Positions 10,989-54,022 of a stretch of 64,000 bases of DNA are shown one piece after another. Source of the DNA: a bacterium (GTDB lineage Bacteria; Elusimicrobiota; Elusimicrobia; Elusimicrobiales; UBA9959); the NCBI GenBank assembly GCA_021786295.1, contig JAJYNO010000025.1:3206-67205 (forward strand), in the 5' to 3' direction. The position numbers and the translations under genes were made by a program. The notes below the pieces were generated by a model. The model did not search any database. It was not told the origin of the DNA and worked only from the letters and a program-made list of their open reading frames with translations. Position 1 is the first letter of the stretch. Each line of letters begins with the position of its first letter.

Positions 10989-11017
10989 TTGACACAAGCG
11001 GGTTTTTCTAATAGACT
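10989..11017 (+). promoter_or_regulatory. Sigma70-type promoter of the FecR/barrel operon
   Basis: TTGACA-17 nt-TAGACT, ending 6 nt before ATG 11024. Confidence 0.8.
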
Positions 11018-11023
11018 CTCCCT

Positions 11024-12943
11024 ATGAAAGACAATATTTTCAGGGGGTGCGCGGCGCTGCTGTTCGCGGTCTTCGCCGCGCTCCCGGCCGCCGCGCTGGC
11101 CGGCGAGGCGCAGATAATCGCGCTGGGCGGCAGCGTTCAGGCGCGGCTGACCAGCGAGGGGGACTGGGTGAAGGCCTCCAAAGGCCTGTCGGTCCCGGAG
11201 GGCGGCGCGATACGCACCGACGCAGGAGGGGCGGCAGTGGTGCTGATGCCGAACAAGAGCAAGATCTGGCTAAAGGAGAGCACCCGCCTGGAGATAGAGC
11301 AGCGCCAGACGTTCGCCACCAGGCTGGCGCTGCTGTTCGGCAGGATCAAGGCCCGGGTGCCGCACCTGATGCGCCAGGAGAGGTTCGAGGTGCGCACTCC
11401 GTCTGCCGTCTGCGCGGTGCGGGGCACCGAGTTCACGATGGGCACCAGCGAGGACGGCAAGATGGACCTGAAGGTCCTTTTCGGCGAGGTCAACCTGCGC
11501 TTCAACGTGCCTCCGGCCGTGGGTCCGGACAGGTTCGACGTGCCGCAGGGGGAGGAGCTCTCAAGCGCCCCGGAGGGCAAGCCGAACAGGCCGGTGCTGC
11601 TGACGGCCAAGGCCGAGAGCGAGGCCCTCGAGAACTGGGACCCGGGGCTCACTCCGGAGGAGAGGACGGCGGACCTGGTGCGCAAGGAGAACGACCGCGC
11701 CCAGATCCGCGAGTTCGCCGCGGCCACCCAGAACGCCGAGGCGCAGGTCAGGAGCTTCCTGAACGTGGTCAAGGAGTCAGACCTGGCGGCCGGCCGCACG
11801 CTGACCGACGTGCACGGCAATCTGGTGCGAGTGGACCAGCGTCTGCTGCGCCCGGCTCCGGACCAGATACAGTTCTTCAACCTGGTCAAGCGCCAGGTCT
11901 ACAACAACGACGGCTCCTCGGCGCAGAACGGCGGCTTCGCGTACAACGGCGGGCAGGTGATGAACCGCCTGGACTACATGCAGATGACGATGGCCTTCAA
12001 CCAGGCCCTGCCGCAGCGCCTGGAGGACTGGCCAGGCTTCTTCGACAAGAACTCGGTCAAGCCGTCCTGGGCCTCCTTCGTGACGGCCAACCGCACCGAC
12101 GCCTCGCAGATCTTCTTCGCAGCCGAGGGCTACAAGTACGACCAGGCCAGGGACGAGCTGGTCAACAATCCCGGAATACTGACCAATGCCGACGGTTCCC
12201 CTCTGCCGGCCACCAGCCCGGACGACAGGGAGACGCTGATAACAGGCGTGCTGAACGACGATACCGGCGCCGGCGGGACCGGGATCAGCGCGGTACAGGG
12301 CCTGAGCATGATATCCAAACTGCAGGTGGCCGACTCCGGGGCCGGCAACGGGACGCTGGTCTACAAGGACGCCGCCTCCCATCCCGTGGACGGGACCGGG
12401 GCGGGGACCGCCTCGGACGTGGTCTGGGCCGTGCAGACGGCCAATCTGCCCGGCTATGAAAGCAAGGGCTCGGACACGGTAAGCGGCGACGGAGCCCCGC
12501 TCTGGCAGTACCAGGCGGACATGTACGATATCGGCAACCAGCAGTCTACGAACGCGGGAGAATACCTCTGGTTCGCCAAAGAGAACTACGGCATAAGCAA
12601 CAACGGCGCGATAAAGACGGTCGGGGACCTTACGGATTCCGGGCAGGACCCTTTCACCGTGCTGAAGAACAGCGCGCTGGAGAGCGTGATGTACATAAAG
12701 AAATCGTTCGGCAACGATCCGGCCGCCCTCGCCGCAGCGCTCAATCCCTCTCAGATCCCCGTGGCAGCTCTGACGCCCGCCCAGGAAGACGTCCTGAAAA
12801 ACGACATCTCCGGGGAAGATTACTTTTCCTACGGCTCCGGCGGCCCCGGCATGGGCACCAACATCGACGTGGTCTTTATCCCGGACCTGGCCGTGGCCGC
12901 TGTGCAGCGCATGCTGCCTGCTATAACGAGCCTTAAGAACTAA
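11024..12943 (+). CDS. Secreted FecR-domain protein with uncharacterised C-terminal region (paralog A)
   Basis: Signal peptide, FecR core (IRTDAGG...EVRTPSAVCAVRGTEF); shares further blocks with 52397..54022. Confidence 0.85.
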   Translation: MKDNIFRGCAALLFAVFAALPAAALAGEAQIIALGGSVQARLTSEGDWVKASKGLSVPEGGAIRTDAGGAAVVLMPNKSKIWLKESTRLEIEQRQTFATRLALLFGRIKARVPHLMRQERFEVRTPSAVCAVRGTEFTMGTSEDGKMDLKVLFGEVNLRFNVPPAVGPDRFDVPQGEELSSAPEGKPNRPVLLTAKAESEALENWDPGLTPEERTADLVRKENDRAQIREFAAATQNAEAQVRSFLNVVKESDLAAGRTLTDVHGNLVRVDQRLLRPAPDQIQFFNLVKRQVYNNDGSSAQNGGFAYNGGQVMNRLDYMQMTMAFNQALPQRLEDWPGFFDKNSVKPSWASFVTANRTDASQIFFAAEGYKYDQARDELVNNPGILTNADGSPLPATSPDDRETLITGVLNDDTGAGGTGISAVQGLSMISKLQVADSGAGNGTLVYKDAASHPVDGTGAGTASDVVWAVQTANLPGYESKGSDTVSGDGAPLWQYQADMYDIGNQQSTNAGEYLWFAKENYGISNNGAIKTVGDLTDSGQDPFTVLKNSALESVMYIKKSFGNDPAALAAALNPSQIPVAALTPAQEDVLKNDISGEDYFSYGSGGPGMGTNIDVVFIPDLAVAAVQRMLPAITSLKN

Positions 12944-12952
12944 GGGGAGACG

Positions 12953-13699
12953 ATGAAAAGAACAGCGTTCCTCATTCTGTCCGCTCTGTACGCGTCGCCC
13001 GCCTGGGCGGGAGTGGACTTCAATTCCGTCGGCATGAAGATGGCCGGCGAAGTGGTGGCCAACCCGGCCGGCTTCCTGTACGACTTCCAGCAGGATTTCG
13101 AGGGGACCACGCCGCTGCCGCCGGGCAAGAGCCTCAGTTTTCAGACCGGGCTTTGGGGAGGCATACTGCCGACGCTGGCGGCCATGCCCAGCCTTTCCGC
13201 CAAGTACCGCCTGCACCCGGAGGGCCGCCTGGCCCCCGGAGTGCCGCAGATAGACCTGATAGGCGGCTACTGGAGCTCGCCGCTGGCCAAGTCTGCCGGC
13301 AACAATTCCAGCGCCGTGAACGACCTGAAGTTCAACGGCTACTACATGGGAGCGCTGGTGACCTCTTCCGTGAGCCCGCGCGTCCGCACTTTCTGGGGCT
13401 ATAAGCACAGCCAGCTCAACGCCAGGCTCTCCTTCGCGGCGGGGCATGAACCGGACCTGCTGGGCACCAAGGTCAACAGTTTCAACACCGGTTTCAGGGA
13501 CGACTTCATCATAGCCGGCATAGAGACCCCGAAGGGCGTGGACAAGCTGTGGAGCATCCAGCTCGACTACGGCCTGGGCACGCAGACCTTCTGCAGCAAG
13601 GTCAGCTGGTACGGCAAGGTGTTCGAGCTGGGGCTGAACATCTACCCTGAGGGCGTGCTGGTGGTGCACCCCGTCTGGAACATGCACATCAATTTCTGA
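12953..13699 (+). CDS. Putative small outer-membrane beta-barrel protein
   Basis: Signal peptide, alternating hydrophobic/aromatic strands, C-terminal Phe (WNMHINF). Confidence 0.65.
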   Translation: MKRTAFLILSALYASPAWAGVDFNSVGMKMAGEVVANPAGFLYDFQQDFEGTTPLPPGKSLSFQTGLWGGILPTLAAMPSLSAKYRLHPEGRLAPGVPQIDLIGGYWSSPLAKSAGNNSSAVNDLKFNGYYMGALVTSSVSPRVRTFWGYKHSQLNARLSFAAGHEPDLLGTKVNSFNTGFRDDFIIAGIETPKGVDKLWSIQLDYGLGTQTFCSKVSWYGKVFELGLNIYPEGVLVVHPVWNMHINF

Positions 13700-13707: not shown

Positions 13708-14958
13708 ATGAAAAAGACAATTCTCGGCGTTCTTATGACCGGAGCCCTGGCCGGCGGGGCCGCGGCGGCGGTGCCGGAGGACTCCAAGGTCTTCACTCCG
13801 TACTTCAACATGACGATGATGGAGGCCGGCTACGTGCCCAGCCAGGGGAACATCTTCAGCGGCGGCAACATCGACACGCAGGTCGGCATGCTTACGAAAC
13901 TCTCGCCGAAGGACCAGCTGTTCGGCCTTTACGACTTCAACTACGACGGTCAGGGCTTCGCGCCCCAGGATACGAAGCAGTTCACCGACCGCTCGATGAC
14001 GCACTCGTTCAACTTCGAGTACAGGCGCGCCCTGAGCGGGAAGTTCCGCCTGCGCCCCGGGGTCTCGTTCTCGCACGACTATTCCCGCACCGGCGCCAAC
14101 GAGACCTGGAAGACCGGCCTCTACAACATGAACTCCTTCGGCCTGCAGCTGGCCGGGGACTATCTGTTCGACTTCGAGAAGAACGGCATCGTCACGCTGA
14201 CCGTGCTGACCAAGAACGTCAAGTTCCCGAACTACACGGACCTGCTCAGCGAGTTCAACAGCGTCAACGGCCAGCAGGCCGGCGTCAACGGCGGCCTGGA
14301 GGACCAGCGCCTGACGCAGGTGAGCCTGCGCCCGATGTGGAACAAGTTCTTCGGCGGAATAACCTACACGCAGCAGGACTACAAGAACCAGAAGGTGGTG
14401 GACCTTAACTCTGCCGGAGACACTGCCGGCTACGGAGACACCAAGCAGAAGGACAAGACTACCATGCTGGACGCCGGTTTCAGGCATAAGATCTGGATCT
14501 TCGAGCTGTCGCCGATGGTCTCCTATACCGTACACCGCTCCAACCAGAACTACATCCGGTTCAAGTCCCTCGGCGCCACCTCCACCGACCTCACCTCCGG
14601 CAGTTCCGACGTGACCTTCATAGCCAGGAACTACGACTACAACGAGACCACGCTCAGCGTGCCGGTGGACCTGGACATAACCGGCAAGTGGGCCATAGGC
14701 GGAGCCGTAAGCGTGACCAGCCGCCACTATACGTCGCGGCCCAGGCGCGACGCCCTGAACGACTATATCATGGGCACCAAGCAGGACAACCTGATGACCA
14801 CGCTGACCGGCTCCATCCGCAAGCGCATCAACGAGATAGCCACGGTAAGGCTTTTCTACTCGCTGGTGGTGGCCAGCTCCAACTGCAAGTTCGAACAGTA
14901 TATGCCGTACAACTATACCGGCAACAGTTTCGGATTGGCCTACCAGCTGTCGTACTGA
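13708..14958 (+). CDS. Uncharacterised outer-membrane beta-barrel protein (paralog A)
   Basis: Signal peptide, amphipathic beta-strands rich in Y/F/N/T, C-terminal aromatic (FGLAYQLSY); homologous to 51028..52395. Confidence 0.78.
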   Translation: MKKTILGVLMTGALAGGAAAAVPEDSKVFTPYFNMTMMEAGYVPSQGNIFSGGNIDTQVGMLTKLSPKDQLFGLYDFNYDGQGFAPQDTKQFTDRSMTHSFNFEYRRALSGKFRLRPGVSFSHDYSRTGANETWKTGLYNMNSFGLQLAGDYLFDFEKNGIVTLTVLTKNVKFPNYTDLLSEFNSVNGQQAGVNGGLEDQRLTQVSLRPMWNKFFGGITYTQQDYKNQKVVDLNSAGDTAGYGDTKQKDKTTMLDAGFRHKIWIFELSPMVSYTVHRSNQNYIRFKSLGATSTDLTSGSSDVTFIARNYDYNETTLSVPVDLDITGKWAIGGAVSVTSRHYTSRPRRDALNDYIMGTKQDNLMTTLTGSIRKRINEIATVRLFYSLVVASSNCKFEQYMPYNYTGNSFGLAYQLSY

Positions 14959-15059: not shown

Positions 15060-16508
15060 ATGAGGACTTGCAAGGCCATAAAGACGTCCGTTCTGTGCGC
15101 GGCGGCCCTGCTGGCGGCTTCGGCCGCCGGCGCGGCCGGTCCCGGCACTTCCGCCGCCGACTTCCTGAAGATCCCGGTGGGGGCCAGGGAGACGGCTATG
15201 GGCGGAGCCTTCACTTCCGTTCCGGACGGTCCCGGCTCCGTGCTCTACAACTCCGCCGGCCTCGGCCTGGCCGCCGTGCCCGGGTTCACTTACTCCTATA
15301 ACGACTATCTGCCCGGCATCTCCCAGCACTGGCTGGCCGGCTCGCTGCCAGCCGTCGGCGGGGCCGTCGGCTTCGGCCTGGATTACCTGGACGTAAGCCC
15401 CTTCGCCTCTTACGATAATCTCGACAACAGGACCGGTTCGGTCTCCGCCTACGACATGGCCGTCTACCTGGGCTACGGGCGCGGCTTCAGGACCGGCCTG
15501 GCCTTCCTGCCTTCTCTCTACCTGGGCGCCTCTTTGAAATCGCTGAAGGAGAAGCTGGCTTCGGTCTCTGCCGCCGGCTACGCCGCCGACGCCGGCCTGC
15601 TGCTGCCTACCTCGGTGAAGGGGCTCGGCTTCGGGCTCGCGGCCAGGAACCTGGCCGCCAGCCGCCTCAGCTTCATCGGCTCCGGGGCCAGGCCGGCGGC
15701 CGAGTGGAAGGCCGGGGCCTCGTATTCGCTCGCTCCGTCCGCCTGGCCCGTGTCTTTCCTGGCCTCCGGCGACCTGAACCTGCCGAAGGACGGCTCCTCA
15801 TATTTCTCGGGAGGAATAGAAGGGACCTTCTACAGGCTGGTCTCGCTGCGGGCCGGCTACAGCTCCTACGGCGACATTTCCGACGGGCTGAGCTTCGGCC
15901 TGGGCCTGCTGCTGCCGTCGCGCTCGGGGCGGCGCCTGCGGCTGGACTATTCTTACGCCTCCACGTACGACCTCGGGAACATGCAGCGTTTCGGGATCTC
16001 CTGCGCGTTCGGAGGCCGGGCCGGCCGGGAGACGCCGGCTCCGTCCGCCGCGCCTCCCGCGACGGAGCCGGCGCCAGCAGGCGGAACCGCGCCGCCGGCG
16101 GCGGCCGCCAAGAGGAGCTTCGATTCCGCGCTGAACGACCTTTACGGCCAGGATCCGGTTAAATCGCTGGCTGCGGCAGAGTACCTCGCCGGCCTTAACG
16201 ACCCGCGGGCCATGGAGCATTTTTCGGCTCTGCTCTCCTCGGGCAGGACTGACTGGCAGATGGCGGCCCTGCGCGGTCTTGAACTCAGCAAGGACCCTCG
16301 CGCGGTTGGCGACCTCTGCCGGGCGCTGGGCGACCAGAAAGAAGAGGTGCGCGCGCACGCCGCCCTGGCCCTGGCCAGCCACCCGGGCCCGGCGGCCTCC
16401 GCCTGCCTGCAGGCCGAGCTGAAGGGCGAGAGTTCGGATATAGTGAAAAGCGCCATCATAAAGGTACTGGGCGGGATGAGCGCGGCGGGGGGGGCGGATG
16501 CACATTAG
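15060..16508 (+). CDS. PorV/PorQ-family barrel fused to a Pro/Ala linker and HEAT repeats
   Basis: ADFLKIPVGARETAMGGAF..YNSAGL PorV-type N-terminus; LRAGY; LDYSY..DLGNMQRFGIS; then HEAT-like repeats (ALGDQKEEVRAHAALAL). Confidence 0.82.
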   Translation: MRTCKAIKTSVLCAAALLAASAAGAAGPGTSAADFLKIPVGARETAMGGAFTSVPDGPGSVLYNSAGLGLAAVPGFTYSYNDYLPGISQHWLAGSLPAVGGAVGFGLDYLDVSPFASYDNLDNRTGSVSAYDMAVYLGYGRGFRTGLAFLPSLYLGASLKSLKEKLASVSAAGYAADAGLLLPTSVKGLGFGLAARNLAASRLSFIGSGARPAAEWKAGASYSLAPSAWPVSFLASGDLNLPKDGSSYFSGGIEGTFYRLVSLRAGYSSYGDISDGLSFGLGLLLPSRSGRRLRLDYSYASTYDLGNMQRFGISCAFGGRAGRETPAPSAAPPATEPAPAGGTAPPAAAAKRSFDSALNDLYGQDPVKSLAAAEYLAGLNDPRAMEHFSALLSSGRTDWQMAALRGLELSKDPRAVGDLCRALGDQKEEVRAHAALALASHPGPAASACLQAELKGESSDIVKSAIIKVLGGMSAAGGADAH

Positions 16509-17046
16509 GGAACAGTTCGCGCTCCTGGCCCTGGCCCTGGCCCTGGTCCTGCCCCTGGCCCGGCCGGCCAATGCGGCCATGAGCGGCGGGCCTTACGACC
16601 TGCCTCTGCTGGCCACGGTCTCCGGCGGGGGGACGGCGGCCGGCGGGAGCTTCACGGCCGGCGCGCTGAACCTGGGCGGGCCGTCTTTTTCTTCGGTGGC
16701 GCCGAGCGGCGGGGGTTATACCGTTGCGACGGGCGCTGCCCCGGCCGTCGTCCTGCTGGACTCCGCCCAGGTCAATCTGGCTTCCGCCCACTGCTATCCG
16801 GTGCCTTTCATGCCCTCGAGGGGGGATACCGTCATAACCTTTACCGGGCTGACCTCCTCGGCCGAGGTCAGGATATACACCATAAGCGGCCGGCTGGTGC
16901 GGGAACTGTACAAGAGCGACTTCGGGAGCAAGCTGGCGTGGGACGCCCGCAACTCCGCCGGCCAGCAGGTGGCCAGCGGGGTATATATTTACGTCATAAA
17001 GGGAGGCGGTCAGACCGCCACCGGAAAGCTGATGATAATCTGGTAG
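16498..17046 (+). CDS. Small secreted protein with T9SS-like/FlgD-Ig C-terminal sorting domain
   Basis: Signal peptide, Gly-rich N-domain, then HCYPVPF...VRIYTISGRLVREL...WDARNSAGQQVASGVYIY...TGKLMIIW. Confidence 0.82.
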   Translation: MHIREQFALLALALALVLPLARPANAAMSGGPYDLPLLATVSGGGTAAGGSFTAGALNLGGPSFSSVAPSGGGYTVATGAAPAVVLLDSAQVNLASAHCYPVPFMPSRGDTVITFTGLTSSAEVRIYTISGRLVRELYKSDFGSKLAWDARNSAGQQVASGVYIYVIKGGGQTATGKLMIIW

Positions 17047-40337: not shown

Positions 40338-41627
40338 TCAGGGGCTCCAGCTGGGGGTATAGGAATAGCCCTTCATGCCAGGCACCAGCGGGTGCGGGGC
40401 GCTGCCGTCCGAGTCCATGATGTAGATCTCCCTCCTGCCTCCGCGCGTGGAGGTGAAAGCTATGTACCTGCCGTCGGGGGACCAGGACGGGTCCTCGTTG
40501 TTGCCGGCCTGGTAGGTCAGCCTGCGTATCTGGCTTCCGGTCAGGTCGGTCAGGAAGATGTCTAGCGGGTCCCCGCGCCTTTCACGGCCGGAGAACACTA
40601 TCCACTGGCCGTCGGGAGACCAGGAGGGCGAGTCGCACCAGTTGAAGCGGGTCAGCTTGCGGGTCTTGCCTGTGTCCGTGTCCAGAACGAAGACCTCCGG
40701 GTTCCCGGCCAGGTCGGAAATGAAGGCCACCTGCCGGCCGTCCGGCGACCAGGTGGGGGAAGAACTGACGCCGAAGCCTTTCAGTATCCGCTTCACCTTC
40801 TTCGTCACCACGTTCAGCATGTAGATGCCGGGATCGTCCCCGCGCGACAGCGTCATGACCATCGTCAGTCCGTCCGGAGAGAAGCCTCCGGGGATGTTCA
40901 GGCCCTGAAAGGTGGAGAACGGGCGGATCTTTCCGGCCTTCAGGTCTATCTCGAACATGTCCGGATTGCCCCAGCGGTAGGTGGTGTAGTAGATGCGCGT
41001 GCCGTCCTGGGACCAGCGGGGCAGCAGGTCGATGCTGTTGTCGGAGGTCAGGCGGACCAGCCCATGGCCGTCGTAGTCCACCATGTAGATCTCCTTGCGG
41101 CCGGTGGCGTTGTTGGCGAAGGCTATCTTGGAGTGGGCTATCCCCTCCCGGCCGGTCAGGCGCATTATCACGTCGTCGGAGAACAGATGGGCCGCGCGGC
41201 GCAGGGCGTTCTTCTCGCCGCGGTAGAACTTCTCGAGCATCGGTTCCCCGGTGGAAAGGTCGTAGAGGCGGGCCGTGAAGGTCCAGACCGGGCCTGCGTC
41301 GCGCGCCTCGGCGGTTATGAGATGCGGGGCAAGGGCCTTCCACCAGGCCAGGGATCCCGGGGAATCGTCCAGGTTAGCGCGCGAGAGGGGGGCTTCCTTG
41401 AGGTCGAAATAGCGGGAATACAGCAGGTCGGCGCGGACGATGTCCCTGAACTCGCCGGCGAGGGCCAGGTCCTCCTCGCTGCCGGGCCTGGCCGGACGGA
41501 ACTGCGCCAGGGCCAGCGACTGCGTCTTCACCCCGCTGCCCGGTGAAACGCCTATGTAGACGTCGGTCCCGGCGAAGGCGCAGGATGTCAGAAGCAGCAG
41601 CGCCGCTGGCAGAAGCTTCCGGCGCAT
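40338..41627 (-). CDS. tolB: Tol-Pal beta-propeller protein TolB
   Basis: TolB N-domain, KIAF, KEIYMVDYDG, repeated PxWSPDG (PD40) motifs. Confidence 0.92.
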   Translation of the reverse strand: MRRKLLPAALLLLTSCAFAGTDVYIGVSPGSGVKTQSLALAQFRPARPGSEEDLALAGEFRDIVRADLLYSRYFDLKEAPLSRANLDDSPGSLAWWKALAPHLITAEARDAGPVWTFTARLYDLSTGEPMLEKFYRGEKNALRRAAHLFSDDVIMRLTGREGIAHSKIAFANNATGRKEIYMVDYDGHGLVRLTSDNSIDLLPRWSQDGTRIYYTTYRWGNPDMFEIDLKAGKIRPFSTFQGLNIPGGFSPDGLTMVMTLSRGDDPGIYMLNVVTKKVKRILKGFGVSSSPTWSPDGRQVAFISDLAGNPEVFVLDTDTGKTRKLTRFNWCDSPSWSPDGQWIVFSGRERRGDPLDIFLTDLTGSQIRRLTYQAGNNEDPSWSPDGRYIAFTSTRGGRREIYIMDSDGSAPHPLVPGMKGYSYTPSWSP

Positions 41628-41632
41628 GGTCG

Positions 41633-42415: not shown

Positions 42416-42954
42416 TGCCCCTTGACCTCGGTGTCGGCGCGGCGGTTCTGGTGCCAGCAGGCCTCGTTCTCCTCGGTGCAGACCGGCTTCTCTTCGCCGT
42501 AGGATATGGTGCCGACGGAATTCTCGGGGACGCCCAGGCGCACGTAATAGTCGCGCACGGCCTTGGCGCGCCTCTGGCCCAGCGCGAGGTTGTACTCTAT
42601 CGTGCCGCGGTCGTCGCAGTTGCCGGCCACCAGCACCGTCCAGTCCTTGTGCTCCTTGAGGACCTCTGCGTTGGCCTGCAGCGTGGCCTGAGCCGCGTCG
42701 GAGAGGTCGTACTTGTCGAAGTCGAAATAGACGCTCTTTATCGACGGGTCTGCGGCGAAATCCCCTCCGCGGATATCGGGCTCGGTGGAGGCGGTCGAGG
42801 AGCTTTCCTCTACGTCAAGCGTCGGTATGGCCTGGGTGTTGGAGACCATCTGCGCGGGTACGCTCTCCGTTTTCAGGTTCTTCTTGGTGCAGGACGACAG
42901 GCTCAGCGCGGCCAGCAGCGGCAGAGCCAGGGTGAGGGATAGAAAAGATTTCAT
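42412..42954 (-). CDS. pal: Peptidoglycan-associated lipoprotein
   Basis: Lipobox SSC, VYFDFDKY, GNCDDRGTIEYNLALGQRRA, SYGEEKP, NRRA. Confidence 0.95.
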   Translation of the reverse strand: MKSFLSLTLALPLLAALSLSSCTKKNLKTESVPAQMVSNTQAIPTLDVEESSSTASTEPDIRGGDFAADPSIKSVYFDFDKYDLSDAAQATLQANAEVLKEHKDWTVLVAGNCDDRGTIEYNLALGQRRAKAVRDYYVRLGVPENSVGTISYGEEKPVCTEENEACWHQNRRADTEVKGQ

Positions 42955-42991
42955 GATCTCGGATCCTCCATAAACTGTCCGTTCAGACTAC

Positions 42992-43020
42992 AATCTATAA
43001 AAATATACGCGTCTTTACAA
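42992..43020 (-). promoter_or_regulatory. Sigma70-type promoter of pal-cpoB-tolB
   Basis: TTGTAA-17 nt-TAGATT on the minus strand; GGAGG SD downstream. Confidence 0.65.
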
Positions 43021-45087: not shown

Positions 45088-45234
45088 CTGGGGAAGCCCC
45101 GGATCTCATGCAAAGGGGTTAGGGCTTTCGGGTTAGCCCGATAGTGTCGGTTTAAGGTTTCGGGACCGCCATCGATCGGAAGAAAAATGACCTGCGGAGC
45201 GCCAGCCGCGCGGCTGACGCCCTACGGAGGGAAT

Positions 45235-48200
45235 ATGCGTTCATTCAGTATTTTGCTCGCCGCCGTCTTCGCGGCTGTCCTGTCGGGGACGGCTTTCGCG
45301 TCGCCTCAGCCGCTCATCGTCACCGTAAACGATAACCAGGGCAACCTCTTGGAGGACGTGACCGTGGCAGCGGTCAACTTCGGGGTGAACGGCCCCTCCA
45401 CTCACAGCGTGTTCGGATTGACGGACTCTTCTGGCGTCGCGGGCCTGCCGCTGGAGCAGGGCGTGGATTACGAACTGTTCGTCAGCACACAGGGCTATTC
45501 CCCGACGCTCGCCGATCAGTTCAACAACCCGGACCCCTCGGCGCATATCCACCTCCTCTATTCCGGCACCCAGCTCACCCGGACGGTAACTCTGGCCCCG
45601 GGGCTGTCGGGGGTGGGCCGCATAGTGCTCCCCTTCAAGAACGCCACCCCCAGCGAGGTGCTTTTCGGCAGCGTCAACAACAGCGCCCTTCAGCAGCCGG
45701 TGGCCTTCGGCATAACGCAGGCCCTGCCCGACAACACCGGTACGCTGATAGTGGACAACGTCCCCTACGCCTCGGCCGGCACGTATAATATCGGCGCGTA
45801 CGACCCCCAGCTCAACAGGGGCATAGGCCAGAACGTCGACCAGGACCTGAACGGCTCCACCCCGGTCACGATGGGGGCGCCGACCTTGGCCTATTCCCAG
45901 GCGGACTTCAACTATTCCGTGCCTCCGACCCGCGCTGACAATACCGCCGCGCAGAACGGCGGCGCCAGCGGCCTCTCAGTGCAGGGCGTGGTGCAGGACA
46001 CCGCCGCGGCGGTGGTCCCTAACATGGGCATCGGTTTCCAGTACTGCTACAACGGCAATTACAACAACATCTGGACGAATACCGACCAGAACGGGAGCTT
46101 CCAGCTTTACGGCCTCCTCCCAGGCGTCACCTACTACGCGCAGGTCTACGGCGGCTGCACCTGGACCCCGACCGGTCCCGGCGCCTGCTACGCTCCTTAC
46201 AGCAGCCCCGCTCTCTCCGGCGGCAGCCTGGACTGCACCACCCCTCCCTCCGTCAAAGGCCAGAACGATTTCGTGTATTACAGCTCGGCCAGCGTACAGT
46301 ACCAGATACTCAGCCTGTCCCAGATGCCGCCCAGCAGCGGCCAGATAAAGGTGTACGTTAAGGATTCCTCCGGCCACCCGATCCCGCAGGGCAACGTGGG
46401 GCTCAGTCCGGACGGCTCCCTCTGGAGCAATAACGGCTGCTCTGGCGCGCAGAGCTCCACCACGACTTTCTCCTCTCCCGGCTTCTCCAACGCCAACATC
46501 CAGCTGGCCCCGGACGGTTCCGCGGTCTTCAGCGGTCTGCCCAGCGGGAACTACGTCGTAAACGCGTGGACCCCGTTCTCGCAGAACGGCGCCAACGGTC
46601 CGGTCCCTTTCAACGCCGGACCTGACCAGCAGTTCGTCTGGGGCAGCTCAGAAGCGCACTGCGGCACCGACGATCTGCGCGTGGCCGTCGACACCGACCC
46701 CGCCACCAACGCCGGGAGCTACCTGCACGTGTACAATTCCTCCGGCACGGACCTGGGGATGTCCGCTATCGATGTCGCGGTCAACACCGGCGGCAACGCC
46801 ACGGGCAGTCTGACGGGCACGCTGCGGTTCAGCCAGGCCGCCGACCTGACCAAGGACCCGATGATGATAACGCTTAGCCCGATCTGCGGCCCCTCCGGCT
46901 GCCAGGGCCAGGGCAATTTCACGGTAGTCGGCAGCAGCGGCTCGCCCAGCTACACCTACGACATCCCGGTGACCAGCGGCACGGCTTACAACCTGAACGT
47001 CAACTCCAGGTGGTGGGCCTGGGCCCGCACCAACGGCGGCAATAACACCGTGGACCTTTCCACCGGGACCGGCAGCGCCGTCATGGACATGAACTTCGTG
47101 CCCGGCGGCGTGATAACCGGCACCGTCTACAAACCGGACGGCACGGTCTACACTCCCGGCAACAATATCTACGTCTGGATCAACGCCGATGCCGACCAGG
47201 GCTGGGCCGGGGCCCAGCTGTCCAAGGACGGCACGTTCGAGATCGACGGCGCGATGCCGGGCGTGAACCAGCTGTCGCTGAATATAAACGGCAACAGCCT
47301 GGAACAGTATACCCTGCCGTTCCCTGACCCGGTAGTGACCGTGGTGGCGGGCAGCACCGCCACGCTGAACCTGAACCTGAGAAGGGCCACCTACCTCGGC
47401 GCGACGGTCGACATGACCAAGCTTCCGGTCAGCTACTTCGAGGCTTCCGGCTCCGGGGACGCCGTCTACGGCTTCAGCGTGCTGCCGCTGCCGTCCGGCT
47501 CCCTGTTCACTCACGACGAGCTGATAAGCGTCCTGAACCACAAGGGCGGGGACAACAACAGCCTCTCCTATTCTCCTCCCGTAGCCCCCAACGCGCAGGG
47601 GCCTTGCGGCAACGGCTGGACGCCCAACGGCTTCTGCGCCGTCGACCTCCCCTCCCCGGCGGTCTATGACCTGTACCTGGTGCGCAACGGGGACTTCTCC
47701 GACATGAGCGTTTCAAATCCGCCTTACCCGTATTTCACGGTGTTCGGCTCCACGCGGAACGTGGTGCTCAACGATTCCAGGGCTACGGCCCCCGTCCCTC
47801 CCAAGTACATGGGCGGGCAGACGGTCAACGGGGTGAGCGTGGATATGACGCCCTCCTCCGACCTGAGCTCCCGCGGCAACGCGACGCTGGCGGGCTCCGT
47901 GACGGCGACCAACTTCTTCCGCCAGGCGGACTACGCCGCCACCGGCGGCGACTTCAACAAGTTCCTGAACTACCTGCCGGTGGTGAGCCTGTACAACTCC
48001 TCCGGCACCCTGAAGGCGGCGGGCCTGGTAGTCCCTTCTCCCTCCTATATACAGCAGCATAACGCCGAGTTCAGCGCGGACTTCGCGCTGGGCTACCAGA
48101 AATTCAGCACGCTGCTGAACAGCGCCGGGGGCTTCGGCTTCGGGATACAGGACCTGCCCCCGGGCGCCTGCTATACGGCCGTGGTCACTACCCCGAACTA

Positions 48201-50079
48201 TCCGCCGTACCAGACCCGCAGGTGCCTTGGCGCGCCCGGCTCCACTACCACCCTCAATATAGACCTGGACACCGCTGTCGGCTACGGGGCCAGCCTTTCC
48301 GGCGTAGTTTCCGATACCGGCACCGTTCCAATGCCTAACGTGCTGGTGACGGTCTCCGTCCCCGGCATGCAGGACAAGGCGGCGGTCACTGGCTCCTCGG
48401 GGACCTACGAGTTCGACGGCCTCCCGGCCGGCACGGTGAAGGTGAAGGCCTCCTTCGGCGGCTACGCCTCCGCCGAGGCCGACGTGGGAGTGAACGGCAG
48501 CGGGACCGCCTTCACGCAGGACCTGACGCTGACCTACGCCCCCGGCTCGATAACCGGCACCGTGTACTCCCAGAAGCTGCCTTTCGCCAAGGTGCAGCCC
48601 GGCGCCCAGATCTACGCCTACGACGACACCTACAACGGCACGCATACGGACAGCCCCCTGCCGCTGATAAAGACCAAGACAGGCCCGGACGGCTCCTACA
48701 CGCTGACCGGCCTCGTCCCCGGGGATACCTATAAGGTCTTCCTGAGCGTGCCCGGCAAGTACGTGCTGGACCAGTCAGTGACCGCCGCCACCTCCGCGGT
48801 CTCCGGCGCTGACTTCACGATGCTGCCCAAGCCGCTGGACATAGAGCTGTTCGCCAAGCAGGGGGAGAGCTACTACGACTTCACCGTGCTCAACCCGCAG
48901 GACTTCAAGTCCGGGGCGGCCTACTGGTGCGAGGCTCCGTACTCCTCCTGCTCCAGCCCGGCGCCGCTGCAGCTGAACCAGCTCTCGAGCGGGGAATTGT
49001 TCGGGCAGATCCCGCTGAGCCTGCTGACCCCCGGGCATACCTACGTGCTGCACGGCGAGGCGACCTCGCTCACCAACCAGACGGTGGTGAAGGAGATAAC
49101 CTTCGGTCTCGGGGTCAGCGCCAACGCCAGCCAGAACATAGACGACGCTATACTGGGCGACGACTCCGACAACGCCGCGGGCCGCGGCAACAACGAGGCC
49201 CCGGTGGACCCCACCGGGACGGACCCGTCCGCGCTGCAGTTCCCGGCCGGCGCGCTGCTGCCGGTCTCCACCGGCGCCATCCCGTCCTGCGCGTTCTCCA
49301 GCACCGACAAGAACGATCCGGCCGTTTCCACCGAGGTCGCTTCCGTAGGCGCGGACGCGATAAAGGGGAACCTGTACAACATCTCGCTGTCCAGCGTGGT
49401 CGTGAACCAGAACAAGGGTTTCGACGTGACGCTGGCCTACGACAAGAGCGCGGTGACGGACCCCTCCGGCCTGGCAGTGGCGCAGTACAACTCGGCCACC
49501 GACAGCTGGGAGAAGGTCCCCGGCCTGGCGGCTATAGACCCGCTGAGCGGCACCATAAAAGTGCGCCTTAAGAGCCTGACCTCGGTGCTGGCGGCAGGCA
49601 GGCGGACGGCCGCGCCGCTCTCCGTCTTCAACGGGCACGAGTACGTGGTCAGCGCGCCGGCCGGCGCTTCCGTCACTACCTCAGGCACCTTCACCGTGCT
49701 GGAATCCACTGCGGTAGGAGCCGGGGGGAGCGTCTCCACGGTCAAGGTCTACAACTTCCCGAACCCGTTCAACCTGGAAAGCAAGACCCTCGCCACCAGG
49801 TACGCCGGCAGCATGACCACCAACGGGACGATAATAAGCGTGGAGGTGCCGGCAGGCAACGGCGGCCCGGGTCACATCCGCATCTATACGCTTTCGGGGG
49901 AGCTGGTGCGCGACATCAGCATCAGCTTCACCGCTGGCGCCTATAACTACGTGACCTGGGACGGCCGGAATAAGGACGGTTCCGAAGTCGCCAACGGGGT
50001 CTATTACGGCTTCGTCAGCTTCTCCGGCAATAAGCCCGGCAGAAAGCACGCCACGTTCAAGATGGCGGTGATCAAGTGA
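45235..50079 (+). CDS. Large (1614 aa) secreted multi-beta-sandwich surface protein with T9SS-like/FlgD-Ig C-terminal domain
   Basis: GGAGG SD, signal peptide, carboxypeptidase-regulatory-like repeats (LSGVVSD..VTGSSGTYEFDGLPAGT), several Cys pairs, C-terminal YNFPNPF..IRIYTLSGELVR..WDGRNKDGSEVANGVY..KMAVIK. Confidence 0.85.
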   Translation: MRSFSILLAAVFAAVLSGTAFASPQPLIVTVNDNQGNLLEDVTVAAVNFGVNGPSTHSVFGLTDSSGVAGLPLEQGVDYELFVSTQGYSPTLADQFNNPDPSAHIHLLYSGTQLTRTVTLAPGLSGVGRIVLPFKNATPSEVLFGSVNNSALQQPVAFGITQALPDNTGTLIVDNVPYASAGTYNIGAYDPQLNRGIGQNVDQDLNGSTPVTMGAPTLAYSQADFNYSVPPTRADNTAAQNGGASGLSVQGVVQDTAAAVVPNMGIGFQYCYNGNYNNIWTNTDQNGSFQLYGLLPGVTYYAQVYGGCTWTPTGPGACYAPYSSPALSGGSLDCTTPPSVKGQNDFVYYSSASVQYQILSLSQMPPSSGQIKVYVKDSSGHPIPQGNVGLSPDGSLWSNNGCSGAQSSTTTFSSPGFSNANIQLAPDGSAVFSGLPSGNYVVNAWTPFSQNGANGPVPFNAGPDQQFVWGSSEAHCGTDDLRVAVDTDPATNAGSYLHVYNSSGTDLGMSAIDVAVNTGGNATGSLTGTLRFSQAADLTKDPMMITLSPICGPSGCQGQGNFTVVGSSGSPSYTYDIPVTSGTAYNLNVNSRWWAWARTNGGNNTVDLSTGTGSAVMDMNFVPGGVITGTVYKPDGTVYTPGNNIYVWINADADQGWAGAQLSKDGTFEIDGAMPGVNQLSLNINGNSLEQYTLPFPDPVVTVVAGSTATLNLNLRRATYLGATVDMTKLPVSYFEASGSGDAVYGFSVLPLPSGSLFTHDELISVLNHKGGDNNSLSYSPPVAPNAQGPCGNGWTPNGFCAVDLPSPAVYDLYLVRNGDFSDMSVSNPPYPYFTVFGSTRNVVLNDSRATAPVPPKYMGGQTVNGVSVDMTPSSDLSSRGNATLAGSVTATNFFRQADYAATGGDFNKFLNYLPVVSLYNSSGTLKAAGLVVPSPSYIQQHNAEFSADFALGYQKFSTLLNSAGGFGFGIQDLPPGACYTAVVTTPNYPPYQTRRCLGAPGSTTTLNIDLDTAVGYGASLSGVVSDTGTVPMPNVLVTVSVPGMQDKAAVTGSSGTYEFDGLPAGTVKVKASFGGYASAEADVGVNGSGTAFTQDLTLTYAPGSITGTVYSQKLPFAKVQPGAQIYAYDDTYNGTHTDSPLPLIKTKTGPDGSYTLTGLVPGDTYKVFLSVPGKYVLDQSVTAATSAVSGADFTMLPKPLDIELFAKQGESYYDFTVLNPQDFKSGAAYWCEAPYSSCSSPAPLQLNQLSSGELFGQIPLSLLTPGHTYVLHGEATSLTNQTVVKEITFGLGVSANASQNIDDAILGDDSDNAAGRGNNEAPVDPTGTDPSALQFPAGALLPVSTGAIPSCAFSSTDKNDPAVSTEVASVGADAIKGNLYNISLSSVVVNQNKGFDVTLAYDKSAVTDPSGLAVAQYNSATDSWEKVPGLAAIDPLSGTIKVRLKSLTSVLAAGRRTAAPLSVFNGHEYVVSAPAGASVTTSGTFTVLESTAVGAGGSVSTVKVYNFPNPFNLESKTLATRYAGSMTTNGTIISVEVPAGNGGPGHIRIYTLSGELVRDISISFTAGAYNYVTWDGRNKDGSEVANGVYYGFVSFSGNKPGRKHATFKMAVIK

Positions 50080-50105
50080 GGGCCGGCGTGACCAGAGGAG
50101 AGACC

Positions 50106-51011
50106 ATGAAACGTAATATTGTCCTTTCAGCGGTTTTGATGCTGGGCGCGGCCGCCGCCCGGGCGGCCGGCGTGGGCACTACCGGCGCCCAGTTCCTCGA
50201 GGTCGGGGTGGGGGCCAGGGAGCTGGCCCTCGGCTCGGCGGCGAGCGTCCTGACCAGCGGGGCCAACGCTATGAACTGGAACCCGGCCAGGCTGGCCGGC
50301 CTGGCCTCCAGGTCGCTGAGCGCCAGCTACAACTCGCTCTTCCTGGACGAGTCCCAGGGCTTCCTGGGCTACGCCGCCCCGCTCGGGGACGGCATGGGGG
50401 TGCTGGCCGGCGGCGTGAACTACCTTACCGTTTCCAACATAGATAAACGCGCCGGCGACACGGAGAACCCGGATTCGACGTTCTCCGACAACAATACCGC
50501 GCTCACGCTTTCCTACGCCAGGGACGAGGTGCGGCCCGGGCTGTCGCTGGGCGCGAGCCTGAAGTACGTGCAGCAGGGGCTCGACGGCCAGAACGACAGG
50601 GCCATGGCCCTGGACGCCGGCTCCGCCCTGAAGCTGGGCGGGGTCTGGACGGCGGCGCTGGCGGTGCAGAACCTGGGCGGCAAGATAGGCCCCGACGACC
50701 TGCCGCTCACCGTGCGGGGCGGCGCGGCGGCCAGCCTGCTGTCGGGCAAGCTGAGCGCGGCGGCCGACGTGGACTGGCTGGCCAACGACAAGCTGGCCTA
50801 TCTTTCCGTGGGCGCGGAATACTCGCTGGCCAGGTACCTCGCGGTGCGCGCCGGATACCAGTTCGGGCGCAGCCAGGACAAGCTCGGCGGGCTGACGGGG
50901 CTGGCGGCCGGCATGGGGCTCAAGTTCGGCGAGTTCTCGCTGGACTACGCCTATGTGCCGTTCGGCGACCTGGGGGATACCCACCGCATGACGATGGGCT
51001 TGAACTTCTGA
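50106..51011 (+). CDS. PorV/PorQ-family outer-membrane barrel
   Basis: GTTGAQFLEVGVGARELALG, WNPARLA, NLG, VRAGY, LDYAYVPFGDLGDTHRMTMGLNF. Confidence 0.87.
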   Translation: MKRNIVLSAVLMLGAAAARAAGVGTTGAQFLEVGVGARELALGSAASVLTSGANAMNWNPARLAGLASRSLSASYNSLFLDESQGFLGYAAPLGDGMGVLAGGVNYLTVSNIDKRAGDTENPDSTFSDNNTALTLSYARDEVRPGLSLGASLKYVQQGLDGQNDRAMALDAGSALKLGGVWTAALAVQNLGGKIGPDDLPLTVRGGAAASLLSGKLSAAADVDWLANDKLAYLSVGAEYSLARYLAVRAGYQFGRSQDKLGGLTGLAAGMGLKFGEFSLDYAYVPFGDLGDTHRMTMGLNF

Positions 51012-51027: not shown

Positions 51028-52395
51028 TTGAAAAAGGCCATCATCTTCTCGCTTCTCCTGTCGCCGGTCTGCGCCGGCGCCCAGCTCGTTCCCGAAGTAT
51101 CCACCGGCACGGCGGCCCCTCTTCCAGCCTCCGGCGCCGCGGCCGAACTGGAGTCCAAGGCCTCCGCGGCCAAGTCGGCCGTGGACCCCTTCAACGATAA
51201 CACCCACCGCCCCGCGGCCCCGGCAGGGAAGTACCAGCTGATGGGCACGCTGGACCTGTACGGCGGCCAGTACTTCTTCGGCGGTCAGTCCGGGGCTTTG
51301 AACGGCTACGGCGTGCTGAACGCCGAGCTGGCCAAGAGCTACTCGTCCAGCTACGGCTATTACCTGAGCCTAAATTCTGTCTACACAGGTTTCAAGCAGG
51401 TCAACGAGCTGGCCGGAGGCGGCACGCTGTTCCAGCAGAGCCTGGACAACAGCCTCGGCCTCAAGTGGATAAAACGCTACGACGGCGGGTACGCCCTGAA
51501 GCCTCACATAGGCGTGACCAGCGAGCTCTTCCGGGAGACCAAGGACGAGAAATGGGGGCAGGGGCTCTACGACTTCACCCGCTACGACGCCGGCCTTACG
51601 CTGGAACGCAAGACCCGCGCCGGCTTCGAGGTGCCCTGGACTTACCAGCTTTCCTGGGACGCCTATTACACCCGTTACACGCGTTTCAAGTCCCTGGCCA
51701 GCGAGTACGGGGCCGAACTGGCCGCCCCTGACCCGGGCAGCCGCGTGCTGGACGCCGTTACCAACCAGTTCTCCTATTACAACGAATGGGACCTGCCGGG
51801 CTTCGCGAAGGCCGAGGCGCTCGCTTCGGTCGCCGTCACGGGCTACCCGGAGCAGAAGGTCATCAACTCAGCCGGGTCCTACCTTCCCTCCACGCGCTCC
51901 GACTATTACGAACTGCTCACCCTGTCCGTCAGCAAACGCTATCCCGACGCGGAGGTCCTGGGCGGGATAAGACCGGTAGCGGGTTTAGGACTGACCTTCG
52001 ACGACCAGGTCTCCAACCAGAACCACCTGGACACCGACCCGGCGCACCTGAAGTTCATAAAGTCGTTCTACGATTACTACGAGACGACCCTCTCTCCCAC
52101 GCTTATGCTCACGTCGGTCTCCTCCGGCTTCGTGCTGTCGGCCAATTACAGCTTTACGGCCCGCTGGTATCCTGACCGCCTGACCCAGACCGACTCCGGC
52201 TCCTATACCGGGGATAAGCTGAGGCAGTATACCGGCGACTTCGGCCTGGAAGCCTCCTATCCGATAACGGCTTCCCTGGACGCGAGGCTGCGGACCGACT
52301 GGTCCCTCTCCCGCTCCAATAACCGTTACGAACAGGTCTACCGCTACAACTACGACAGCTCCACGTATTTCGCGGGCGTAGAATGGAGGTTCTGA
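51028..52395 (+). CDS. Uncharacterised outer-membrane beta-barrel protein (paralog B)
   Basis: Signal peptide, Tyr-rich amphipathic strands, C-terminal FAGVEWRF; homologous to 13708..14958. Confidence 0.78.
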   Translation: MKKAIIFSLLLSPVCAGAQLVPEVSTGTAAPLPASGAAAELESKASAAKSAVDPFNDNTHRPAAPAGKYQLMGTLDLYGGQYFFGGQSGALNGYGVLNAELAKSYSSSYGYYLSLNSVYTGFKQVNELAGGGTLFQQSLDNSLGLKWIKRYDGGYALKPHIGVTSELFRETKDEKWGQGLYDFTRYDAGLTLERKTRAGFEVPWTYQLSWDAYYTRYTRFKSLASEYGAELAAPDPGSRVLDAVTNQFSYYNEWDLPGFAKAEALASVAVTGYPEQKVINSAGSYLPSTRSDYYELLTLSVSKRYPDAEVLGGIRPVAGLGLTFDDQVSNQNHLDTDPAHLKFIKSFYDYYETTLSPTLMLTSVSSGFVLSANYSFTARWYPDRLTQTDSGSYTGDKLRQYTGDFGLEASYPITASLDARLRTDWSLSRSNNRYEQVYRYNYDSSTYFAGVEWRF

Positions 52396-52396: not shown

Positions 52397-54022
52397 ATGA
52401 GAAAGCCGGGCTTTGTCCTTCTTATGCTGCTTTCCGTCCCCTGCGCGGCCATGACGCGCGGCATAGTTCTGGTCCCGAAGGGCACCGTGGAGGCCCGCGC
52501 TTCCGGCTCCGCCTCCTGGGTGCCGGTCTCCAGGGACGTGCGGCTGAAAGAGGGCGACGAGGTCCGCACCTCTGGCGGCGCGACCGCGGACGTCTATTTT
52601 TCCGACGGTTCCCGCTTCAGGATAGGCCGCGACAGCCATTTCGCCGTGGGCAGCACCGGCAGGAAGAGGACCGCCCTCAGCCTGCTTTACGGGAGGCTGA
52701 GGGCCGCGGTGGCGGGGTATTTTTCCAGCCGGGTGGAGGTGCGCACCCCTTCGGCCGTCTGTGCGGTGCGCGGCACCGAGTTCGACGTGCAGGTGGCCAG
52801 GAACGGCGATACCTCGATGAACGTGGACGAGGGCCTGGTTGAGGTCAGCGACGGCAAGGGCAAGACCGCTGTCGTTTCCTCCGAGGAGGCCATAAAGGTG
52901 ACGCAGGCCGGCATGTCCATGCCGCAGCTGGTGTCGCTCAGGGACGACAGGGCCGAGGCCGCCGCGCGGCCGATGGCCGTCATCCACGACACCGCCCGCC
53001 AGCGCACCCGCACGATGCTGGAGGAGCTGCGCAACCGCCAGCTCAAGGCCAACGAGGCGGAGCTGGGCAAGGACGCCATAGACGCGTTCGGCCACCGCGT
53101 GCGCCTGGAGGAGTACCTGCTGCGCCCCTCCGACAAGGAGTTCAAGCTGCTGTTCCTCAGCAAGCGCGAGGAGGCCAGCAGGCTGGACTGGGGCCAGATA
53201 GACGAACAGTTCCACGCCGCCATCCCGGACGACATCAGCAAGGTCGGGGACATTATCAGCGGCATGTACTTCTCCAAGACGGCCCCGACGAACTGGATGA
53301 AGTACTTCGAGGTGTACCTGACCAACACGGTGGACAGCGTGAAGGAGACCATAGACTTCACCCAGCCAGTAGCTATAAATTTCTCCGGCTATACCGGAGT
53401 GGCCAACGACTTCCGCTATTACCCGGGCTCGATCGACTGGAAGCAGATCCTGTCCGGGCCGGGCGTGGCGCTGGCCCAGGGCGCAGGCACTAACGCCCCG
53501 GGGCTCAACGCCGACGAGCGCATGCAGTTCGAGCAGAAGCAGGACTGGAACCAGACCTACGCCAACAATATCACGTTCACGCAGAGCGTGGTGGACGCCT
53601 CCGGAGCGATGGCCGAAATGTACCAGGTCGCTCTGAATCCGGCTCTCTCCGCCAGTGTGCAGGCCGCCGAGGCCGGGGCGTATACGTATTGGAACAGCAA
53701 TATTGACCCCACCCAGCTCACGCCGGCGTACAACAGCTATCCCAGCGGGCCGGACAAGGCGGACCTGTACGGGGAGAGCGTTTACGCCGACGGATCGACC
53801 TTGTCGGTGCGCAAGATGCTGGTGTCCAACGAAGGGGATATCTTGAGCATACCCGGGAACGCCGCCCCCGCCACCTTCCTCAAGGAGGGCAGCTACAACC
53901 TGGAGGAGGTCGTCGGCTCCAGCCTGTTCCAGGGCCGGGATATAGACGTGCTGCTGGCCCCGGAGATACTGAACCAGAAGAATAACGCCACCACCACCGC
54001 GGACAGCTTCAAGCTGAACTGA
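52397..54022 (+). CDS. Secreted FecR-domain protein with uncharacterised C-terminal region (paralog B)
   Basis: Signal peptide, GDEVRT, EVRTPSAVCAVRGTEF, VDEGLVEV; shares blocks with 11024..12943. Confidence 0.85.
   Translation: MRKPGFVLLMLLSVPCAAMTRGIVLVPKGTVEARASGSASWVPVSRDVRLKEGDEVRTSGGATADVYFSDGSRFRIGRDSHFAVGSTGRKRTALSLLYGRLRAAVAGYFSSRVEVRTPSAVCAVRGTEFDVQVARNGDTSMNVDEGLVEVSDGKGKTAVVSSEEAIKVTQAGMSMPQLVSLRDDRAEAAARPMAVIHDTARQRTRTMLEELRNRQLKANEAELGKDAIDAFGHRVRLEEYLLRPSDKEFKLLFLSKREEASRLDWGQIDEQFHAAIPDDISKVGDIISGMYFSKTAPTNWMKYFEVYLTNTVDSVKETIDFTQPVAINFSGYTGVANDFRYYPGSIDWKQILSGPGVALAQGAGTNAPGLNADERMQFEQKQDWNQTYANNITFTQSVVDASGAMAEMYQVALNPALSASVQAAEAGAYTYWNSNIDPTQLTPAYNSYPSGPDKADLYGESVYADGSTLSVRKMLVSNEGDILSIPGNAAPATFLKEGSYNLEEVVGSSLFQGRDIDVLLAPEILNQKNNATTTADSFKLN

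Follow-up and report, generated by a model that had tools for sequence, protein, structure and literature searches.

How a stand-alone outer-membrane β-barrel serves a neighboring FecR-domain protein is the question raised by a gene at positions 13708..14958 (+ strand) of a 64,000-nucleotide stretch of DNA (the window) from an Elusimicrobiales bacterium of the lineage UBA9959 (GenBank assembly GCA_021786295.1, contig JAJYNO010000025.1, positions 3,206 to 67,205). The gene product, B1 (416 aa), is predicted to be a 16-strand outer-membrane β-barrel from an AlphaFold2 model and the invariant columns of its family alignment. An initial annotation, made from the sequence alone, had placed B1 in an uncharacterized family present twice in the window, always next to a FecR protein, and had proposed that it is a dedicated translocator or anchor for that protein, functionally like two-partner or Slam/T11SS (type XI secretion system) pairs. 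From the analysis described here we lean, if only slightly, toward the barrel being a dedicated outer-membrane socket, or anchor, that displays its cognate FecR-domain protein at the cell surface.

The second barrel, B2 (51028..52395, + strand; 455 aa, lengthened at the N-terminus by a Pro/Ala-rich segment), was recognized as a paralog of B1 by BLASTP and by the family profile. The two proteins share 74 identical residues over 332 (22%, E = 2e-8), and their Smith-Waterman score of 121 lies far above those of 500 shuffles of B2 (40.0 ± 5.8, maximum 65). All seven motif pairs that had been quoted as colinear occur in the same order, at residues 132, 176, 225, 278, 304, 339, and 391 of B1 and 174, 220, 273, 329, 343, 379, and 430 of B2. 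Both genes are intact open reading frames (ORFs) encoding signal-peptide-like N-termini and, as noted at the outset, an aromatic last residue (Tyr in B1, Phe in B2). The family profile found exactly two copies in the source genome, which is 79% complete, and the named relatives of both barrels belong to Elusimicrobia/Elusimicrobiales. F2, the partner of B2 (52397..54022, + strand; 541 aa; Pfam FecR, E = 2.2e-16; model predicted local distance difference test score (pLDDT) 85), follows it after 1 base. B1 is the third gene of an F1-M248-B1 array, in which F1 (11024..12943, + strand; 639 aa; Pfam FecR, E = 1.5e-15) is the partner and M248 (12953..13699, + strand) is an exported 248-aa protein with a terminal Phe.

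The B1 model, built from an alignment of 98 relatives, had a pLDDT of 90.3 and consisted of 16 strands, the first starting at residue 28; the strands are joined by short turns at one end of the barrel and by long loops at the other, and no helical domain followed the signal peptide. The conserved residues of the family, polar and aromatic ones among them, gather on one face, within these long loops, and give loop 6 the consensus SNQN...YYDY. The absence of POTRA, plug, and TPR domains claimed earlier was borne out: none of these families was found in B1 or B2 in Pfam or NCBIfam, POTRA and TPR matched none of the 98 family members in Pfam, and the model is a plain barrel. DUF560/SlipAM (PF04575) and the Omp85 Pfam families likewise matched none of the 98 at E ≤ 0.01, and the only Pfam signals were below threshold (Autotransporter in two members, PagL in one). 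B1 and B2 matched no NCBIfam family at E ≤ 0.1 and no PorV/PorQ or PorP-SprF profile in NCBIfam or Pfam, though neighboring genes match PorV_fam. A PDB sequence search with the barrel gave nothing at E ≤ 1, and none of the matches that Foldseek listed against the PDB reached a TM-score of 0.5 by query, in keeping with the description of the family as uncharacterized. A profile search collected 552 representatives at E ≤ 0.001. As side observations, some barrels carry long N-terminal extensions (L083:4867-7182; P0296, P0301, P0274, P0254, and P0249) with one or two copies of a repeat of about 250 aa that is rich in β-strands, or with other domains, which by eye resemble passenger or periplasmic domains.

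Structural comparison ranked CdiB first (Z 21.2, root-mean-square deviation (rmsd) 3.0, 279 residues aligned); OprB scored Z 19.8 and FhaC Z 19.5. The 16-strand porins OmpC, OprB, and OmpT scored Z 18-20 at 6-13% identity and were tied with CdiB and FhaC; the porin matches of the predicted fold are generic. The fold is predicted to be a barrel, and no match singled out a small-molecule porin; neither observation disturbs the initial proposal. Among the other barrels that it had named for comparison, AlgE (Z 15.3) and Wzi (Z 13.4) ranked below the 16-strand barrels, and Slam and PorP/SprF were not among the structural matches listed, an absence that does not amount to exclusion. The closest cluster from outside Elusimicrobiota in the Atlas came from Ignavibacteriota, with SlipAM on 19% of its members and a TM-score by query of 0.67, and serves as a lead only.

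The homology of F1 and F2 reaches beyond the FecR domain. F1 is composed of a signal peptide, a FecR domain with an Arg-Gly-Thr motif (R133-G134-T135), a linker with a helix (approximately residues 225-257), and a C-terminal β domain; F2 has a signal peptide, a FecR domain, a helix, and a C-terminal β domain without a clear known fold. The 73 partners that we compared have in common a signal peptide, the FecR domain, a linker, and a β-rich C-terminal domain ending in an RKIDL-like motif. Their linkers between the FecR and β domains span 50-99 aa (at least 50 aa in 73/73) and mostly end in an Ala-rich helix pattern. The Arg-Gly-Thr motif, located at 52769..52777 (+ strand) in F2 and kept in 71 of the 73, is motif-aligned with the self-cleavage Gly-Thr of FecR-family proteins; FecR itself is described as cleaving between Gly181 and Thr182 (PMC12036975), and the site is also discussed for Leptospira FecR-domain proteins (PMC13719327).

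The FecR part of the partner superimposed on PupR with Z 17.6 (rmsd 2.3, 131 residues aligned), in residues 111-246 (the CJM subdomain) only. The STN subdomain of PupR was left unmatched, and in the partner model a helix and a β meander follow CJM instead. The partner has no anti-sigma domain and no inner-membrane helix, and its FecR domain comes directly after a cleavable-type signal peptide; a second hydrophobic segment exceeding a Kyte-Doolittle 19-residue mean of 1.6 was seen in only 3/73 partners. The first 90 residues also resembled the RIN domain of MpIBP (5IX9; Z 6.1, rmsd 2.6, 73/76 aligned; Foldseek TM-score by target 0.66, E 0.07), and the NCBIfam retention_LapA profile hit the FecR part at E = 0.0016 with 18.7 bits, below its cut-off of 50. 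For the C-terminal domain, searched within the whole protein, the best Z was 7.3 with no clear fold, and an Atlas search with the partner returned FecR clusters only. In the same whole-protein search a TbpB-like 8-strand barrel had no Pfam match and was not among the fold matches listed; type-A-like C-terminal domains (CTDs) of type IX secretion systems (T9SS) and TPS domains were not matched either. The source genome has four further FecR-domain ORFs that do not adjoin such a barrel. Elsewhere two partner-type genes accompany one barrel, in tandem in L112 (G124:C1) and as a second, FecR-less copy downstream in L207.

Next, the association of the two genes was examined in 201 Elusimicrobiota genomes. 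The barrel was present in 72 and the helix plus C-terminal domain of the partner in 75, and all 72 lie within the 75 (G029 was counted from the tally). In two large small-genome families, probably host-associated, the pair was found in 1/58 and 0/63 genomes. After 9 fragments had been dropped from 136 barrel matches, 127 near-full-length barrels remained; a partner lay within 1 kb of 100 of them and at 1-4 kb of 14, and 13 had none within 4 kb. The statement that the barrel is always next to a FecR protein thus holds for B2 and F2 but not in general, since B1 and F1 are parted by the 248-aa ORF and 13/127 barrels have no partner within 4 kb. These 13 comprise 4 at contig ends, 1 with a partner at 4.1 kb, and 8 that are truly unlinked, and in all 8 of the last a type-matched partner is encoded elsewhere in the genome (5 B1-type with F1-type, 3 B2-type with F2-type). 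Tree distances of 71 adjacent pairs correlated with r = 0.87, compared with a mean of 0.46 and a maximum of 0.83 for within-genome shuffles (0/2000 reached 0.87), and the true pairing was the best in 20/20 multi-copy genomes. One natural fusion was found, in which partner and barrel are joined in that order in a 913-aa protein with a linker of about 55 aa and no internal signal peptide (L105:5998-8736 (-), G009:C87).

The F1-M248-B1 operon also occurs in records labeled Nitrospinota, Coatesbacteria, and others. The range outside Elusimicrobiota is uncertain because at least one label (L206) seems to belong to a genome that the phylum search counted as Elusimicrobiota. In one Nitrospinota-labeled contig of 30.9 kb (L140), a complete F1-M248-B1 close to Elusimicrobiales copies stands beside type IV pilus-like genes; horizontal transfer or mis-binning is possible for this operon, whose genome has no SprA match.

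We then predicted the complex of B2 (residues 67-455) with F2 (residues 20-541) in a single job for copy 2 only. The pair scored 0.86, and the best of three controls with unrelated partners or an unrelated barrel scored 0.00. The mark used for this score was reached by 116/157 solved and 2/215 mismatched pairs and is roughly applicable here, where our own alignments were used. The runs shared at least 84% of contacts, with a partner pLDDT of at least 79. In the model, the F2 helix (residues 194-218, or 175-199 of the mature protein; 52976..53050, + strand) spans the lumen of B2, entering on the periplasmic and leaving on the outer side. In the best-resolved contacts, mature residues 176-197 touch every second residue of strands 5-10, the pattern of lumen-facing positions; the helix as a whole makes at least 200 confident contacts. 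Residues 176-183 lie at the periplasmic strand ends (barrel residues 36, 46, 125, 141, and 185) and residues 190-197 at the outer ends (147, 149, 175, and 179). Mapped onto strand direction, these contacts would put the FecR domain under the periplasmic turns and the β domain on loops 2-8. The loops that the β domain is predicted to contact carry the most conserved motifs of the family, which are those that had been singled out in the initial annotation. Although a helix lying in a barrel lumen is a well-known arrangement, the score is unlikely to reflect a close homolog already familiar to the predictor, because the search turned up no solved relative of the barrel by sequence. The model supports binding of F2 by B2 but does not prove it.

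In the reading that we favor, both proteins would be exported by Sec on account of their signal-peptide-like N-termini; the sequence of the partner shows no second hydrophobic segment. The barrel would be inserted by the barrel assembly machinery (BAM) via its aromatic C-terminus, as expected from established biology of outer-membrane proteins (OMPs). The C-terminal domain of the partner could then cross the pore unfolded, or BAM could assemble the barrel around the helix, as in RcsF-OMP complexes, two routes that the present data do not distinguish. The end state would be interlocked, with the helix in the lumen, the folded FecR domain as a periplasmic stopper, and the β domain on the conserved outer loops; it is predicted for B2 and F2 and would extend to B1 and F1 by homology. 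More speculatively, self-cleavage at Gly-Thr could loosen the stopper and free the displayed domain. The likeliest client of that domain in B2-type loci is the co-encoded pair of a giant CTD protein and PorV. Anchoring is better supported than translocation because the predicted complex represents a retained, interlocked state. The barrel fold and the dedicated cognate relation of the initial proposal are supported, and the barrel may also carry the passenger across the membrane.

Several points weigh against this interpretation. The structural evidence is all predicted, and that for the complex comes from one job on copy 2. Covariation between the two proteins (128 paired rows, effective number of sequences 80) was weak: the 24 best predicted contacts had a mean Z of 0.43, compared with -0.01 ± 0.24 for random pairs (62/2000 draws reached it). 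Neighboring outward-facing positions gave a mean Z of -0.65, and 41 of the top 200 covarying column pairs fell inside both interface sets versus 5% expected, but these top pairs look like subfamily markers. Congruence of the trees of neighboring genes is also expected from joint duplication alone. The L105 fusion is awkward for the topology, as its extracellular C-terminus would have to return to the periplasm via the linker of about 55 aa to start strand 1, a strain that would be relieved only if another segment also ran through the lumen. L105 is moreover a single case, with no fusion among 150 listed of the 552 representatives (146 of them new), whose long members have N-terminal extensions of other kinds; none was found among 7993 longer candidates either, which is weak evidence. 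Finally, the Z score of 6.1 to 5IX9 falls within the range of common arrangements.

If the predicted topology is true, it provides a mechanism for an envelope module that is conserved but lacks annotation, in a phylum that has received little study, and adds a new barrel family to the few pores in which a protein made separately is held threaded. It would also suggest a non-regulatory use for many orphan FecR domains, as periplasmic stoppers shaped like the retention modules of type I secretion systems (T1SS), and would make the pair a compact surface-display tool. A bolder version is, to our mind, rather doubtful: a self-sufficient two-gene display route, in which a 16-strand barrel without POTRA or TPR both exports and permanently clamps a separate passenger in the manner of a split inverse autotransporter, with the self-cleaving FecR domain as a releasable stopper, and docks giant T9SS-like cargo across free-living Elusimicrobiota. 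The barrel family and the proposed stopper are new; pore retention as a way of working is already known. No description of the barrel family or of T9SS-like genes of Elusimicrobiota was found in the open-access literature, a coverage that mostly leaves out subscription journals, and PMC12204202 mentions Elusimicrobia in the context of Tol-Pal only.

The closest precedents for such retention are T1SS adhesins. LapA is tethered in LapE (10.1101/198937), and the periplasmic RIN domain of MpIBP exceeds the TolC pore and blocks release (PMC5550230). As in those systems, a periplasmic β domain at the N-terminus that exceeds the width of the pore would be combined here with a thin stretch inside it and a functional part outside, and the N-terminal FecR part of the partner weakly resembles RIN. 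However, their pore is a TolC trimer, whereas a monomeric 16-strand barrel dedicated to one partner is predicted here, the partner has a Sec-type signal peptide, and no ABC transporter or membrane-fusion gene is present among the window neighbors. Barrels of inverse autotransporters (type Ve; intimin and invasin) have 12 strands. They share with our prediction the N-in/C-out arrangement with a linker in the lumen; in intimin the C-terminal passenger is outside (PMC13078405). In contrast, barrel and partner are encoded by separate genes in all but one locus, where the fusion has the opposite order (passenger-barrel), the barrel has 16 strands, the linker is helical, and there was no sequence match. 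RcsF, like the partner in our model, is made separately from the OMP whose lumen it threads (PMC4942254), but it is a lipoprotein that uses general OMPs and keeps its C-terminal domain in the periplasm, whereas the partner has no clear lipobox, a cognate barrel, and the reverse predicted orientation.

TpsB transporters such as FhaC and CdiB resemble the barrel in strand number, in the top structural match (CdiB), and in an adjacent dedicated cargo gene. They hold the H1 helix from their own N-terminus in the lumen, and TpsB/Omp85 proteins have a conserved VRGY/F motif in loop 6. In our case, the luminal helix would be supplied by the partner, POTRA is absent, identity is 9-13%, the cargo has no TPS domain match, and the word [VILM]RG[YF] occurs anywhere in just 6/98 and 8/117 barrel sequences, positions unchecked. 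Slam/T11SS (DUF560, PF04575) also has a stand-alone OMP gene beside a surface-protein gene. However, the barrel of Slam is predicted to have 14 strands and is preceded by a TPR domain (PMC5449769), and known Slam cargo has a C-terminal 8-strand barrel (10.1101/2024.09.26.615229), unlike the 16-strand, TPR-less barrel without a PF04575 match and its partner, for which no TbpB-like match was among those listed. The suggested likeness to two-partner or Slam/T11SS pairs therefore does not extend to membership, with 16 rather than 14 strands, neither TPR nor POTRA, and 0/98 matches to DUF560/SlipAM or Omp85. The anti-sigma factors FecR, PupR, and FoxR share the FecR (CJM) fold and the Gly-Thr motif with the partner, which lacks their anti-sigma domain, membrane helix, and STN; in place of these it has a helix and a β domain of a new type, linked to a dedicated barrel. 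Non-regulatory envelope proteins with FecR domains are described in Leptospira (LipL45, Lsa33, and Lsa19; PMC13719327). Thus, the pair is not a Slam, TpsB, or type Ve system, nor an anti-sigma system.

The same interlocked complex might serve signaling rather than display, with the outer β domain sensing a ligand and the helix relaying this to the periplasmic FecR domain and an unlinked inner-membrane regulator, as in RcsF or NsrA, the latter of which reportedly contains a FecR domain. Retention of Arg-Gly-Thr in 71/73 partners would fit this idea, as do RcsF, which passes through the lumens of OMPs and transmits signals over the outer membrane (PMC4942254), and NsrA, a barrel receptor signaling to inner-membrane cyclases (PMC7529298). 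We nevertheless consider it unlikely: the partner has a cleavable-type signal peptide and neither an anti-sigma domain nor a second hydrophobic helix, its match to PupR omits STN, which is also required for binding the transducer (PMC7186176), its linker varies between 50 and 99 aa, and a Pfam scan of the neighbors in the window revealed neither a sigma factor nor a cyclase (the other loci were scanned with six custom profiles only). A gated solute channel, in which the helix would plug a porin-sized pore in trans and the outer domain would act as a substrate-binding lid, in a SusCD-like uptake without a TonB box, would account for the polar and aromatic outer loops, for the 16-strand porins among the best structural matches, and for a barrel essentially confined to genomes outside the two small-genome families. 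It seems to us distinctly improbable, because these porin matches are generic and level with CdiB and FhaC, the predicted helix fills the lumen, and no transporter or catabolic gene was found among the window neighbors. Least probable of all is that no physical pair exists and that the genes are simply co-regulated envelope genes, the threading being a modeling habit that places a helix in an empty barrel. The weak covariation and the fact that a prediction score is not a measurement speak for it, but controls with unrelated partners or an unrelated barrel scored 0.00, type-matched partners are kept in 8/8 unlinked cases, and a natural fusion exists.

The surroundings of both loci, which contain PorV/PorQ-family genes and type-A-like CTD proteins, raise a further alternative, namely that an SprA-like translocon exports the partner and the barrel receives it as a third shuttle beside PorV and PorP/SprF, both of which have 14 strands. 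Upstream of B2 lie an exported 1630-aa protein that combines carboxypeptidase-regulatory-like repeats with a T9SS type-A-like CTD (45187..50079, + strand), homologs of which often adjoin B2-type pairs, and a PorV/PorQ-family barrel (50076..51011, + strand; NF033709, 146 bits, cut-off 90). A second PorV/PorQ-family barrel, fused to HEAT repeats, is encoded 3' of B1 (15060..16508, + strand; NF033709, 97 bits); it follows B1 in some loci only and is a variable neighbor outside the core pair. SprA-like ORFs of about 1750-1950 aa are present in 178/201 Elusimicrobiota genomes, as weak matches that all lie below the TIGR04189 cut-off. A CTD-bearing ORF of at least 800 aa lies within about 6 kb in 36/80 loci, the source genome has 17 PorV-family ORFs, an SprA-like gene lies 2.5-4 kb from the B1 operon in two loci examined, and barrels specific for particular cargo have been described for type B CTDs (PMC9143113). 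Even so, we give this alternative little credence. The partner has no type-A-like CTD, lateral transfer from another translocon would hardly lead to a threaded state, and SprA-like genes occur in 56/58 and 43/63 genomes of the two families in which the pair is found in 1/58 and 0/63. Since SprA-like genes persist without the pair, and two Nitrospinota-labeled genomes of unknown completeness have the barrel with no SprA match (0/2), the pair is probably not a core part of the T9SS. GldM was not found in the 201 genomes and GldN not in the source genome, although no positive-control genome matched; together the data suggest a phylum-wide T9SS-like translocon without a recognizable motor.

The PorV/PorQ-family ORFs of the source genome (e.g. 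in window 45187-51011 and 15060-17046) often stand beside a type-A-like CTD protein, as if there were one barrel per cargo, and two other genomes (G203 and G204) have 44 and 67 PorV-family matches. The SprA-like ORF of the source genome (G000:C31:35675-41086 (+), 1803 aa; loci L001-L003) is flanked by LptF/G-like permease-type genes. In L126 (G107:C36) and L127 (G105:C7), the distance from F1-M248-B1 to the SprA-like gene is 2.5-4 kb, and the stretch separating them holds two genes that look permease-like (by eye of the LptF/G kind). Near G000:C8 109478-109753, a 12,796-codon open frame with a CTD-like end, encoding a giant surface protein, is followed by a PorV-family gene.

Within the B1-type operon, M248 is directly upstream of the barrel in 29/30 loci. 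Judged from its sequence, it is likely a small outer-membrane barrel; OMP_b-brl was weakly matched by 1/28 family members (E = 0.014). The possibility that M248 is a half-barrel homolog of B1 was rejected, because hhalign gave a probability of 13.6% and aligned the signal peptide only. A terminator 3' of B1 was likewise rejected as evidence for the operon end, its fold being no better than shuffles (z 0.93). A near-consensus sigma-70 promoter (TTGACA-17-TAGACT, 10/12; window 10989-11024) is followed 6 bases later by the F1 start codon, so that a transcript of F1-M248-B1 would be leaderless. Window 16498-17046 encodes a 182-aa protein with little beyond a signal peptide and a CTD, followed at 16938/17061-18515 by a repeat-rich, fiber-like protein with a weak match to the Bdellovibrio MAT N-terminal family (E = 1e-4). 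A tol-pal cluster (TolB-like, CpoB-like TPR, and Pal/OmpA) occupies window 40338-43681 (- strand), about 1.5 kb upstream of the second locus.

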